From Candidatus Woesearchaeota archaeon (GTDB taxonomy: Archaea; Nanobdellota; Nanobdellia; Pacearchaeales; GW2011-AR1): a stretch of DNA of 7,182 bases. This document shows positions 1,281-3,159 of the stretch, piece after piece. Location: contig CAZAOW010000027.1 of NCBI GenBank assembly GCA_964487075.1, positions 1 to 7,182 of the forward strand. Direction: 5' to 3'. Under the pieces are notes generated by a model, which searched no databases, was not told where the DNA came from, and was given only the letters and a program-made list of their open reading frames with translations. Both the position numbers and the translations under genes were made by a program. Within the stretch, counting starts at the first letter, position 1; each line of letters starts with the position of its first letter.

Positions 1281-2066
1281 TTATAGTTTTCTTTTTCTGA
1301 AATAAATGAAAGCACTAATCAATCCTGTCAAGAATAAAATTCCTCCAATCCAATTTGAAGAAGTTAGAGTTAAGTTAGCAATTACATACCCTGTAAAGTT
1401 ACCTGAAATAAAGATAAGAGAAAACAAAAATGCTGCCACTGGAATTATTGCAACATAGTTTGTTACAGAATTTTCTAGATTCGAATTCCCCATAGAAAAT
1501 TTCGCTTCATGACTTACTGGAACAAACCTATACCGAAGATTATATTTTTTAGCAAAATCCTTTAATGATTTATGTTCATCTACCCCACCCATTGAAGTTG
1601 CTTTTTTATATTCACCAATGATCTTCCTCCCTCCTTGGGTTAATGCACTTCTTTCGGATAAAAAAGTTAAAATTGGATTACTGAAAAAACAAGATGGAGG
1701 AGGGGTTTTCTTAGTCTTTCTCATTATTCCGTAGCCATCTAATTTTCCAGTATCTGACACTATTCGTGCAATAACCTCTGCCTTTTGATTGGAACTAGCT
1801 AACATATTTAAAAGGTCTTCTGGACTTGGATAAGTTCCAAATAAAGGATGTGTAGAATATTCATATGGGTGGGTGTGTACCCCTGTAAAACGTTTTCCCA
1901 TAAACTGATTAAACCAATCGCGGAATTTATTCCGGATTACATAATCCTCCGAACGATATAATGAATTTGATTTTAGTTCCTTTCTAGGAAGTTTAATCCA
2001 GTTCTCTTCCAAATGGGGGTTCTCAACAGACTCAATTATTTCTTTAGGAGATTTTTTCTTTTTCAT
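1281..2066 (-). CDS. Membrane-anchored protein with a JAB/MPN (JAMM)-like metalloprotease motif and two C-terminal TM helices
   Basis: 261-aa ORF with an ATG start. It contains GVHTHPYEYSTHPLFGTYPSPEDL, which is HxHP followed by PSxxD as in JAMM/RadC-like JAB domains, but with a spacer about 7 residues longer than usual. The C-terminus has two hydrophobic segments (YVAIIPVAAFLFSLIFISGNFTGYVIA and WIGGILFLTGLISAFIYF). There is no N-terminal signal peptide. The call as a CDS is solid. The functional call rests on the motif only. Confidence 0.6.
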   Translation of the reverse strand: MKKKKSPKEIIESVENPHLEENWIKLPRKELKSNSLYRSEDYVIRNKFRDWFNQFMGKRFTGVHTHPYEYSTHPLFGTYPSPEDLLNMLASSNQKAEVIARIVSDTGKLDGYGIMRKTKKTPPPSCFFSNPILTFLSERSALTQGGRKIIGEYKKATSMGGVDEHKSLKDFAKKYNLRYRFVPVSHEAKFSMGNSNLENSVTNYVAIIPVAAFLFSLIFISGNFTGYVIANLTLTSSNWIGGILFLTGLISAFIYFRKRKL

Positions 2067-2184: not shown

Positions 2185-2757
2185 TTACTTTCCGTGATGC
2201 TTTTGCGCTCTCGCGCTCGGTCTTACTTTAAGCTCGTGCGTTTTCTTTCTCAATCCGCGGGATTTTTTTCCTGCGCTTGTAATCCCACGGAACGCGCGAC
2301 CTTTGTTTCCCGGTTTCCCAATCCACGAGATATTTTTGTCGTTTTTTATTTCCGGTTTTGAAGGATCAACGAGGATAACTTCATAAAAATAATGTTCGCC
2401 GTCTTTTCCAACAAAGTAGGAATTCAACACTTCAAGGTTTCTGAACTTTCGCGCGACACGCTGTTCTGCAATCCATTGATAACTCATTTTCAAATTTTTT
2501 CTCGTGTGCATTCTCCTGCTCATTCTTCCTTTTATCGGTCTTGAACGCTTGTGTCCGCCGCGCATTAATCTCACACGAACGACGACGAAACCTTTTTTGT
2601 CCTTGTAACCTAGCTTTCTGGCTTTGTCCAATCGCAACGGTTTTTCAACTTTCACAAAAGCTTCCGTTTTTCTCCACTCAGTCATTCTTTCTCTGAGAAT
2701 TTTTACGTCTGGTTTTTTCCATGCTTGCGCAATATAATGATACATTCCCTTGGACAT
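2185..2757 (-). CDS. rpl15e: 50S ribosomal protein L15e
   Basis: 190 aa: MSKGMYHYIAQAWKKP...RLDKARKLGYKDKKGFVVVRVRLMRGG...IAEQRVARKFRNLEVLNSYFVGKDGEHYFYEVILVDP...RGITSAGKKSRGL. This is the characteristic L15e family sequence. Confidence 0.95.
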   Translation of the reverse strand: MSKGMYHYIAQAWKKPDVKILRERMTEWRKTEAFVKVEKPLRLDKARKLGYKDKKGFVVVRVRLMRGGHKRSRPIKGRMSRRMHTRKNLKMSYQWIAEQRVARKFRNLEVLNSYFVGKDGEHYFYEVILVDPSKPEIKNDKNISWIGKPGNKGRAFRGITSAGKKSRGLRKKTHELKVRPSARAQKHHGK

Positions 2758-2787: not shown

Positions 2788-2832
2788 TTTAGTAAAGCAT
2801 TTAAAACAAAATTTGTTGTGTTTTCCATAGAC

Positions 2833-2848
2833 TGAAATCAAGATTTCA
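2833..2848. promoter_or_regulatory. Perfect 7-bp-arm palindrome TGAAATC-AA-GATTTCA
   Basis: Read directly from the sequence. It ends 1 nt before the upstream tRNA 5'-end copy, inside the rpl15e/tRNA divergent intergenic region. Confidence 0.3.
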
Positions 2849-2849
2849 C

Positions 2850-2871
2850 GAGCCTGTAGCTCAGTCTGGTA
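2850..2871 (+). repeat. Exact 22-nt copy of tRNA-Ile positions 1-21 (acceptor 5' strand, D-stem 5' strand and D-loop)
   Basis: GAGCCTGTAGCTCAGTCTGGTA is identical to 2939..2960. The identity starts exactly at tRNA position +1 and stops before the D-stem 3' strand. Confidence 0.85.
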
Positions 2872-2904
2872 ATCACGGGAAACCGTTCAAACCACCTGAG
2901 CAAG

Positions 2905-2914
2905 AAATAAATAG
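2905..2914 (+). promoter_or_regulatory. Putative TATA box for the complete tRNA-Ile
   Basis: AAATAAATAG is centred about 29 nt upstream of tRNA position +1 (2939). Confidence 0.3.
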
Positions 2915-2938
2915 TATCTTCGCAGGTTCAGATGCTAT

Positions 2939-3012
2939 GAGCCTGTAGCTCAGTCTGGTAGAGCACTGCTCTGATACGGCAGGGGTCCAAGGTTCAAATC
3001 CTTGCAGGCTCA
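2939..3012 (+). tRNA. tRNA-Ile (anticodon GAU), 74 nt, no intron, CCA not encoded
   Basis: Hand-folded cloverleaf. Acceptor GAGCCTG/CAGGCTC with discriminator A73. D-arm GCTC-AGTCTGGTA-GAGC. Anticodon arm CTGCT-CTGATAC-GGCAG, with U33, GAT at 2973..2975 and A37. Variable loop GGGTC. T-arm CAAGG-TTCAAAT-CCTTG. Confidence 0.93.
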
Positions 3013-3107
3013 TTTCCTCAATTGAGCAAAGCGAAATTGAACGGATTTGATAAATCGGTTTAAACGAAAAGGGAAAATAACGCGTAGAAAACCGCAGGTG
3101 TTCTCGC

Positions 3108-3129
3108 TTCAAACCTTGCAGGCTCATTT
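3108..3129 (+). repeat. Near-exact copy of the tRNA-Ile 3' end (T-loop, T-stem 3' strand, acceptor 3' strand, discriminator and TTT)
   Basis: TTCAAACCTTGCAGGCTCATTT matches TTCAAATCCTTGCAGGCTCATTT (2993..3015) apart from one deleted T at the T-loop/T-stem junction. Confidence 0.8.
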
Positions 3130-3134
3130 ATTTT
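3127..3134 (+). terminator. Oligo-T tract TTTATTTT directly after the downstream tRNA 3'-end copy
   Basis: This is the best T-rich termination signal in the tRNA locus. The complete tRNA itself is followed only by TTT. Confidence 0.35.
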
Positions 3135-3159
3135 AATTAGAAATTTAAGATAATAAATT

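Follow-up and report, generated by a model that had tools for sequence, protein, structure and literature searches.

A tRNA-Ile Gene Flanked by Copies of Its Own Ends

The DNA analyzed in this work, hereafter the window, is the whole stretch of 7,182 nucleotides (nt; G+C content ~35%) of contig CAZAOW010000027.1 from a Candidatus Woesearchaeota archaeon. One single tRNA-Ile(GAU) gene sits between the genes for ribosomal protein L15e and a zinc-ribbon protein in this window, and copies of the two ends of this tRNA gene lie on either side of it. The nearest relatives of the L15e protein are found in metagenome-assembled genomes of Pacearchaeota, Woesearchaeota, and Nanoarchaeota (DPANN archaea; 68–80% identity). 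We compared the window with a strain set, comprising 15 public contigs with an identical L15e protein, and with a clade set, comprising 80 species-representative loci fetched around L15e relatives (L011–L090). Contigs L001–L010 derive from groundwater metagenomes. The features of the region are as follows.

2185..2757, minus strand: ribosomal protein L15e gene
2850..2930, plus strand: upstream tRNA-like pseudogene, consisting of the 5′ 22 nt, a hairpin, an AT-rich arm, and an acceptor-type 3′ end (GCAGGTTCA)
2850..2871, plus strand: outer 5′ copy, an exact copy of tRNA positions 1–22 (acceptor 5′ strand through D-loop), the distal border of the upstream module
2872..2938, plus strand: 5′ spacer, 67 nt, non-coding and fast-evolving
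2902..2913, plus strand: promoter-like box AAGAAATAAATA (transcription factor B recognition element and TATA box, BRE/TATA), located in the spacer and ending 25 nt before +1 of the inner tRNA
2939..3012, plus strand: functional, intron-less tRNA-Ile(GAU) gene, 74 nt (assigned by ARAGORN, Rfam RF00005, and synteny)
3000..3015, plus strand: the inner of two exact 16-nt direct repeats (CCTTGCAGGCTCATTT), made up of the 3′ strands of the T-stem and the acceptor stem, the discriminator, and 3 nt of trailer
3016..3129, plus strand: 114-nt insertion/deletion module (spacer and outer 3′ copy), absent from contigs L004 and L009
3038..3050, plus strand: inverted copy of the tRNA T-loop region (TGAACGGATTTGA, compared with TCAAATCCTTGCA at 2994..3006), 13 nt, 85% complementary
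3108..3129, plus strand: outer 3′ copy, TTCAAA-CCTTGCAGGCTCATTT, which lacks one T but otherwise equals tRNA positions 54–73 plus TTT and forms the downstream module's distal border
3127..3134, plus strand: oligo-T tract TTTATTTT, which abuts the tRNA directly in the empty-site strain L004
3160..3885, minus strand: zinc-ribbon protein gene

The initial annotation, made from the sequence alone, had placed a complete tRNA-Ile(GAU) at 2939..3012. This is corroborated by ARAGORN, which called a single tRNA-Ile(GAT) at 2938..3013, and by a full-length match to Rfam RF00005 at 2939..3012 (70.5 bits, E = 2.6e-14). The perfect 5′ repeat and the 3′ repeat with one deleted T, which had been described at the same time, were also recovered. 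The first 22 nt of the tRNA (GAGCCTGTAGCTCAGTCTGGTA) occur exactly twice in the window (2850..2871 and 2939..2960), and the chance expectation for this 22-mer is 0.00 in shuffled sequences even with three mismatches permitted. The leaders of the two 5′ copies differ, sharing only AGAT at −9 to −6 upstream of +1, so the identity effectively begins at +1. At the other end, the last 13 nt of the tRNA plus TTT (CCTTGCAGGCTCATTT) are found exactly at 3000..3015 and 3114..3129 (0.05 expected by chance), and the identity reaches back to 3108 via TTCAAA(T), such that the last 19 nt plus TTT are present at 3108..3129. The good oligo-T tract follows the outer 3′ copy (TTTATTTT) rather than the inner gene, which is followed by TTTCC, as had been pointed out.

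The same structure was found in contigs L001, L002, L005, L006, L008, L092, L094, and L096, which come from different samples and assemblers, and the outer 5′ copy is present in every strain contig that reaches its position. An assembly error had been considered at the outset; an identical arrangement across independent samples and assemblers indicates that the structure is not such an artefact. Contigs L007, L010, and L003 break off exactly within the repeated tRNA pieces or at their edges. Short-read assemblies are expected to fragment often at such loci, with assembly graphs breaking at repeats or strain variants.

The Downstream Module and Its Strain Polymorphism

A small DNA insertion/deletion (indel), bounded by a 16-nt direct repeat, has the outer 3′ copy as its far border. 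Among the 15 contigs with identical L15e, the gap between the neighboring genes is 289 nt in L004 and 403 nt elsewhere. In the alignment of L004 and L009, the 5′ copy, its spacer, and the tRNA are kept; immediately after the tRNA 3′ end comes TTTATTTTAATTAG, the same sequence as after 3129 in the window. The exact absence of 114 nt, with the tRNA joined to the sequence after 3129, identifies the 3′ copy as an indel border. The placement of this module slides within the 16-nt repeat and can equivalently be given as 3000..3113. The oligo-T tract TTTATTTT is the putative terminator that the tRNA gene originally had, now 114 nt further away because of the insert; its terminator role rests on general archaeal oligo-T termination.

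This polymorphism crosses the haplotypes defined by single-nucleotide polymorphisms (SNPs). Contig L003 shares the SNPs of L004 and L009 but has the module. Contig L009 is the same as L004 and L003 up to the tRNA 3′ end and is clearly more divergent beyond it, including in the zinc-ribbon gene. L009 is thus a mosaic haplotype with a breakpoint at the tRNA, and together these contigs mark the tRNA as a recombination breakpoint within the population.

Without the repeats, the inserts measure 67 nt on the 5′ side and 95 nt on the 3′ side, and contain no credible open reading frame (ORF). The 3′ module has the spacer left end CCTCAATTGAGC, the spacer right end GTGTTCTCGC, and the repeat TTCAAACCTTGCAGGCTCATTT. 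As an RNA, this module is unremarkable (z = −0.77, no better than shuffles), and the similarity between its spacer interior and the window's own tRNA is insignificant (1273/2000 shuffles). In public assemblies, an 84-amino-acid ORF is called at 2873..3127 (minus strand), antisense to the tRNA and to the spacers on its two sides. Given that nothing in Pfam matches it and that it runs across the 114-nt segment that is polymorphic, this ORF is almost certainly spurious.

The Upstream Module

The upstream copy had been described initially as a lone 5′ block. The 22-nt copy itself stands, but 2850..2930 also has an acceptor-type 3′ end (GCAGGTTCA) at 2922..2930, which pairs with 2850..2857; the copied acceptor strand pairs with GCAGGTTC at 2922..2929. 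Between these ends, a hairpin at 2859..2901 pairs the copied D-arm with its own inverted copy (ACCACCTGAGC). On account of this pairing and this hairpin, the unit at 2850..2930 is an entire tRNA-like pseudogene rather than a 5′ block alone. The predicted RNA fold of 2850..2938 has −30 kcal/mol (z = −4.56), and 0/200 shuffles were equally stable. Neither ARAGORN nor Rfam called the upstream unit as a tRNA, and its interior has no significant similarity to the window's tRNA (195/2000 shuffles).

In a three-unit alignment, all three units align at their 3′ ends. A local origin without any mobile element may be considered here, in which tandem duplication or triplication, or template switching at the hairpin-forming D- and T-arms, would have produced copies that were then gutted by internal deletions and inversions, with the 114-nt polymorphism as a later precise deletion between repeats. 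This explanation, which we regard as unlikely, is related to the eroding triplication proposed in the initial annotation. The two tRNA-like ends of the upstream unit and the 3′ alignment of the three units speak for it, as do the tRNA-like bits that the spacers hold in both orientations (T-loop-like, inverted T-loop, and inverted D-arm). As a tandem duplication, however, the comparison is uneven: unit ends align, interiors are insignificant, and the two leaders differ. Perfect distal ends beside unalignable interiors are unlike gradual decay. Moreover, the window's spacer interiors are unlike its own tRNA, whereas the 5′ spacer resembles that of a different tRNA in another species, namely, tRNA-Lys in L057 (1/2000 shuffles). 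It also resembles the 5′ spacer of L030 (15/2000 shuffles). By-eye alignments of the spacers as the decayed remainder of the window's tRNA were likewise insignificant, and only the upstream acceptor-type 3′ end was retained.

Among strains, the 5′ spacer differs by three SNPs (2875, 2878, and 2904) and a 4-nt deletion (2902..2905), whereas the tRNA and its copy are invariant, which suggests that the spacer is under little constraint. The spacer contains the only box-like site in the window, AAGAAATAAATA, which has three mismatches to the clade consensus AACTTATAAATA. This consensus ends 19–25 nt before +1 in 27 of 28 ordinary tRNA-Ile genes, and no box-like site was found within 70 nt upstream of the outer 5′ copy. 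Judged by this consensus, the spacer box is likely the promoter of the functional gene. With the sole promoter-like box placed after the outer 5′ copy and before the gene, that copy probably lies outside the tRNA transcript.

Recurrence of Terminal Copies in Related DPANN Genomes

A tRNA-Ile(GAU) gene is a conserved neighbor of L15e in most of the 80 clade loci, in either orientation. The two strands relative to L15e are about equally common (L011–L090), which indicates that the tRNA-Ile gene and its promoter have been repeatedly inverted between the same neighbors. Approximately one-third of the tRNA-Ile genes in these 80 genomes, together with one tRNA-Arg (L044) and one tRNA-Lys (L057), carry end copies, none of them more than ~360 nt away. 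When each locus was searched with its own tRNA for exact copies of at least 13 nt, we found 27 copies in ~22 loci, every one of them on the same strand as the tRNA; those of the 5′ end were all upstream and those of the 3′ end all downstream. We further tested this polarity in 83 tRNAs with 16-nt terminal probes (at least 14/16 matches, within 400 nt). A 5′-end copy was found upstream on the same strand for nine tRNAs and a 3′-end copy downstream on the same strand for 14, while all six control configurations gave zero. The copies track each lineage's own tRNA sequence. The 3′ copies all lie 64–358 nt from the tRNA and none further, with 2–5 kb available in most loci.

The 5′ and 3′ sides occur independently of each other (both in five genes, 5′ only in seven, 3′ only in 10, and neither in 44; one-sided Fisher p = 0.09), and the modules are scattered on the L15e tree. 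Closely related genomes can differ: the tRNA-Arg of L044 has an array of modules, and the near-identical L046 has a clean empty site. L030, L031, and L032 share identical flanks and an identical promoter, yet a 5′ module goes with an intron-less tRNA in L030, no module with a 51-nt intron in L031, and a 3′ module with a 14-nt intron in L032. Intron turnover and flank rearrangement thus appear linked in these three. The flanking blocks are not conserved across orthologous loci; the sides are independent and labile, and the 3′ piece is missing even in conspecific strains. Taken as a whole, the modules are labile DNA-level features with no conserved RNA design.

This strict polarity is not predicted by simple duplication. 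Of the initially proposed triplication, the part that stands is that the flanking units look tRNA-derived; it leaves the polarity, the precise empty sites, and the spacer families shared between different tRNAs unexplained.

Several other patterns were observed at these loci. In L034, L038, L049, L055, L066, L068, L080, and L083, differing single genes lie between tRNA-Ile and L15e, encoding a PLD-family protein, GNAT acetyltransferases, a methyltransferase, and proteins of unknown function; the gap looks like a small variable-gene hotspot without integrase. The tRNA-Ile gene is unusually intron-rich in this clade. For L012, L027, L040, L041, L071, L082, and L089, ARAGORN gave Glu, Ala, Asn, Lys, or Ser tRNAs with long introns, or nothing. 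These miscalled tRNAs, located ~100–300 nt upstream of L15e, are tRNA-Ile genes with long or multiple introns; in L012, L071, and L089, for example, the anticodon stem and the canonical site are each interrupted by one intron. Runs of N in L027, L041, L044, L075, and L078 fall on or beside the tRNA T-arm and tandem 3′ modules, and the unit counts of these arrays are therefore uncertain.

Assessment of an RNA-Level Function

The outer 5′ copy is complementary to the outer 3′ copy, and a helix between them is part of the fold predicted for 2850..3134 (z = −5.0). An RNA-level function would make the outer pieces exons of a split or nested tRNA, or make the outer helix a scaffold for processing of the inner tRNA, and the abundance of tRNA introns in the clade, including multi-intron tRNA-Ile genes, is in line with such a function. 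Both possibilities had been raised by the initial annotation, and neither is supported by our results; we consider an RNA-level function extremely improbable. Because the region holds a real tRNA and copies of its complementary ends, a z of −5 is expected, and this value was set aside as evidence of function.

For a split, multi-intron, or nested second tRNA, the required parts are lacking. The outer pieces cover only positions 1–22 and 54–73 (~22 + 19 nt) and have no anticodon arm. Bulge-helix-bulge motifs were searched exhaustively across 2820..3150, which returned 69 relaxed and 11 strict candidates, none of which joins the copies in register; none occurs at the 89-nt period, and the lone candidate at the 113/114-nt period is outside the copies. 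Splicing through such a motif was rejected accordingly, both from one copy to the other and between the two outer pieces. ARAGORN found no second tRNA in any of the spliced products, in agreement with the earlier remark that the outer pieces could not be folded into a cloverleaf, and Rfam found none at E ≤ 1 in the window. A permuted tRNA gene was also rejected, given that the order is 5′ copy, gene, and 3′ copy and that no upstream 3′-end copies exist among the 83 tRNAs.

As for a processing scaffold, the two sides occur independently of each other and change readily in evolution, and strains with the same tRNA do without the 3′ piece (L004 and L009). In addition, the promoter-like box is located after the outer 5′ copy. 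In several relatives, T-runs stand between the tRNA and the module. Five aligned 3′ modules have no conserved structure in RNAalifold (consensus −3.96 kcal/mol, with an unfavorable covariation term of +0.96), and Rfam scans of the window and eight relatives matched only tRNAs. From these results, we infer that the outer pieces have no RNA function.

Anatomy of the Modules

In relatives, the left boundaries of the 3′ repeats fall into discrete classes, at tRNA positions ~42, 56, 61, and 63, and the right boundary lies 1–12 nt past the tRNA end. The initial statement that the 3′ repeat ends at the discriminator and trailer is therefore valid for the window, but the relatives often extend further into the trailer. 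This extension identifies the repeats as DNA identity blocks and not as copies of mature RNA ends. A fixed target-site duplication of a transposon was rejected because repeat lengths (11–33 nt) and boundaries are too variable. An analogy between the 18-nt 3′ copies and the primer-binding sites of retroelements was rejected as well, since the copies are sense-strand and are followed by trailer T and not CCA. Tandem arrays of modules are present in L044, L075, and L078.

Most 3′ inserts start, at the tRNA-proximal end, with an inverted copy of the T-loop/T-stem of their own tRNA. This inverted copy co-varies with the tRNA, reading GATTCGAACC for the tRNA-Arg of L044 and AGATTTGAACT in L056. The spacing from the T-loop to the inverted copy ranges from 12 to 24 nt. 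In one 3′ sub-family, the motif GCTTGCGGTTT follows the inverted T-loop. Pairing of GCTTGCGGTTT with the 3′ copy was considered and rejected, as the motif does not co-vary with acceptor-stem changes in L049 and L056.

On the 5′ side, relatives with a module have a promoter box 23–25 nt before the outer copy, which places the outer copy at the original gene start. The 5′ spacers of L086 and L034 are homologous to a genuine tRNA-Ile intron of L014 (0/2000 and 9/2000 shuffles, respectively). The 5′ spacers of L014 and L087 are homologous to each other, yet each copy has the lineage-specific base of its own tRNA. The 3′ spacers of the L014 tRNA-Ile and the L044 tRNA-Arg have common motifs by eye.

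Several of these features can be read in favor of local origin, namely, the intron-like sequence in the relatives' spacers and the true tandem arrays. The L014/L087 pair argues against it, in that a shared spacer is combined with copies that each follow their own lineage. Spacer families common to different species and to different tRNAs favor repeated insertion over local decay.

Two Probable Recombination Events at One tRNA Gene

Considering these lines of evidence, the region is probably one ordinary tRNA-Ile(GAU) gene with two independent recombination scars of the attachment-site (att) type, one on each side. Two tRNA-targeted recombination events had been among the initially listed explanations, and this one gives the best fit. 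Support comes from the precise empty site within the same population (L004 and L009) and from the filled/empty contrasts between near-identical sisters (L044/L046 and L030/L031/L032). The strict polarity (9 + 14 against 0 in six controls) and the 3′ repeats, as DNA identity blocks with discrete left boundaries, also support it. The co-varying inverted T-loop is what a core-type recombinase arm supplied by an element would look like, and spacer families are common to different species and tRNAs. Further support is provided by the promoter geometry, with the window's spacer box located 25 nt before the inner gene as in pTN3-like integration, and by the patchy distribution on the L15e tree with no association between sides. 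There is archaeal precedent for fragments of either tRNA end at the borders of integrated elements, with intron exchange among the described cases (PMC3293823; bioRxiv 10.1101/2022.07.05.498093), and the intron-like spacers of L086 and L034 are in line with it. Of the hallmarks of att duplication, a same-strand direct repeat of one tRNA end and an intact tRNA at one junction are present, and a precise empty site is present for the 3′ module and in relatives. We infer that a site-specific recombinase made the modules.

Under this interpretation, a circular DNA with a tRNA-like attachment site would recombine with the tRNA gene and form left and right junctions (attL and attR). The attachment would be at the T-loop/3′ end for the downstream event and at the 5′ half, in the manner of pTN3-like elements, for the upstream one. 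Downstream, a 114-nt module bounded by CCTTGCAGGCTCATTT would have been inserted, of which the near repeat completes the tRNA and the far repeat would be the leftover joined to the original trailer and terminator. Upstream, the module would be 89 nt and bounded by the 22-nt repeat of tRNA positions 1–22. The far repeat at 2850..2871 would be the original 5′ end, moved away from the gene and now joined to a decayed tRNA-like remainder, while the near side would have given the working gene a new promoter-like box and 5′ end. The elements may either have been reduced to their att-flanking arms or have always been miniature gene-less modules.

Several results weigh against this interpretation. No integrase or other mobile-element gene is present among the window's ORFs or, in relatives, between tRNA-Ile and L15e, and the genes beside the relatives' tRNA-Ile contain no integrase domain; an integrase-carrying element between the repeats, which is another hallmark of att duplication, is thus missing from the window and from beside the relatives' tRNA-Ile. 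Five scans of viral collections revealed no donor element, which is weak evidence as these collections are incomplete. One metagenome scan, also of an incomplete collection, returned only the same locus and a chance 20-mer match (L095). A spacer profile searched over all loci matched only its four seeds. All inserts are tiny, and the confinement of the 3′ copies to 64–358 nt is not predicted by random decay of kb-scale elements. The variable T-loop spacing of 12–24 nt is a poor fit to a rigid core site of a tyrosine recombinase, and an empty site was not observed for the 5′ module of the window. Moreover, insertion and precise deletion between the repeats are indistinguishable. The initial annotation had objected that integration normally duplicates only one tRNA end and leaves a kb-scale element. 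The objection is fair, as the tiny size and two-sidedness remain unusual, but two integration scars are still the best fit.

The absence of a donor and an integrase, and the small size of all modules, would also be in line with a local origin. Another explanation, which we consider very unlikely, is that these are miniature gene-less integrative modules that were born small and are mobilized in trans by a recombinase encoded elsewhere. Such modules might use hairpin-forming att sites that mimic tRNA and might repeatedly enter and exit at both tRNA ends. This would account for the narrow size range with no copies beyond 358 nt, the tandem arrays, the presence/absence between near-identical genomes, and the occurrence of the same spacer family on Ile, Arg, and Lys tRNAs. 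It would also account for the common 3′ layout, in which the inverted T-loop at the junction is followed by GCTTGCGGTTT, variable hairpins, and the copy. On the other side, larger elements with conserved arms next to their att sites could equally account for the layout. Neither a second copy in the genome nor a free form nor a recombinase was found, and the sub-families are small, with the profile matching its four seeds only.

A related and broader proposal is a previously undescribed, DPANN-specific class of gene-less integrative modules of ~50–200 bp that are not decayed remnants and insert at either tRNA end. We find such a class distinctly unlikely. In this class, the inverted T-loop or D-arm at the tRNA-nearest junction would possibly act as a folded hairpin att site, by analogy with the sites of phage CTX and integron attC, which act as folded hairpins. 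If such a class exists, the modules would swap tRNA promoters, ferry intron sequence, and leave terminal fragments, offering a live view of the first steps toward intron-bearing or split archaeal tRNA genes.

Comparison With Known Integration Systems

Archaeal integrases commonly target the T-loop/3′ end of tRNA genes (PMC8371274), and such integration generally leaves partial tRNA genes behind (bioRxiv 10.1101/2022.07.05.498093). The downstream module resembles SSV-, pNOB8-, and pT26-2-type integration in having an intact tRNA at one junction and a same-strand partial 3′ copy at the other (PMC8371274; PMC3293823). In both cases, the 3′ copy starts in the T-loop/T-stem and runs past the 3′ end, precise empty sites are found in relatives, and tandem arrays are possible. 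The known elements differ in being of kb scale (1.8 to ~23 kb) and carrying an integrase, whereas the module described here is 95 nt plus the repeat and gene-less, and no donor was found for it.

For the upstream module, the closest comparison is with the pTN3-like integrases of Thermococcales, for which attB is the 5′ half of a tRNA and the inserted DNA supplies the promoter (PMC8371274). Shared features are the upstream 5′ partial copy and an insert that would provide the 5′ end and, through the promoter-like box at 2902..2913, the putative promoter of the working gene. In contrast, the window has no integrase gene and the insert is 67 nt. Most relatives also depart from the pTN3-like pattern: no promoter comes from the insert, and transcription from the native one passes through the outer copy.

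In a Caldiarchaeum subterraneum population, a 5′ tRNA fragment with an adjacent recombinase-bearing insert is accompanied by an intron change (PMC3293823; Sugahara et al., 2012). This tRNA-Thr locus is similar to the window in population heterogeneity and in the 5′ fragment upstream of an intact gene. Its intron content shifts with the rearrangement, for which L030/L031/L032 and the intron-like spacers may be compared. It differs in that the insert is 1.8 kb, encodes a recombinase, and is on one side only. Split, permuted, and multi-intron tRNAs (Nanoarchaeum, Caldivirga, and Thermofilum) have in common with the window the occurrence of tRNA pieces in an intron-rich archaeal clade. Unlike those, the tRNA here is complete and contiguous, the junctions have no bulge-helix-bulge, the pieces are dispensable, and no cloverleaf is formed.

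Terminal tRNA fragments as integration borders are thus already well known. What is new is the two-sided, miniature, and gene-less form and its recurrence in approximately one-third of the tRNA-Ile genes of this DPANN clade, as well as the inverted tRNA-arm copies at the tRNA-nearest junctions and the links to promoter replacement and intron turnover. For annotation, partial tRNA copies beside an intact DPANN tRNA are to be read as recombination borders and not as split or exotic tRNAs. In Pacearchaeota-like archaea, the tRNA-Ile gene adjacent to rpl15e is a hotspot of recombination: about one-third of the species are scarred, sisters differ, orientation flips, introns change, and assorted single genes appear as neighbors. 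Tiny inserts without a nearby integrase imply either very fast trimming to the att arms or a miniature element mobilized in trans. The locus provides population-level material for testing mobile-element recombination as a driver of tRNA intron gain and fragmentation in archaea.

Other Genes in the Window

Further genes in the window encode a short methionyl-tRNA synthetase, a SET-domain protein, a short-chain dehydrogenase, and a methyltransferase. On the far side of L15e, a gene at 1281..2066 (minus strand) encodes a protein of 261 amino acids with no Pfam hit. By eye, an HTHP...SPED stretch in this protein resembles the JAMM/MPN metalloprotease motif, and the C-terminal region has hydrophobic segments. 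In the other SNP haplotype (L003, L004, and L009), this gene is replaced by variants of 248 or 243 amino acids.

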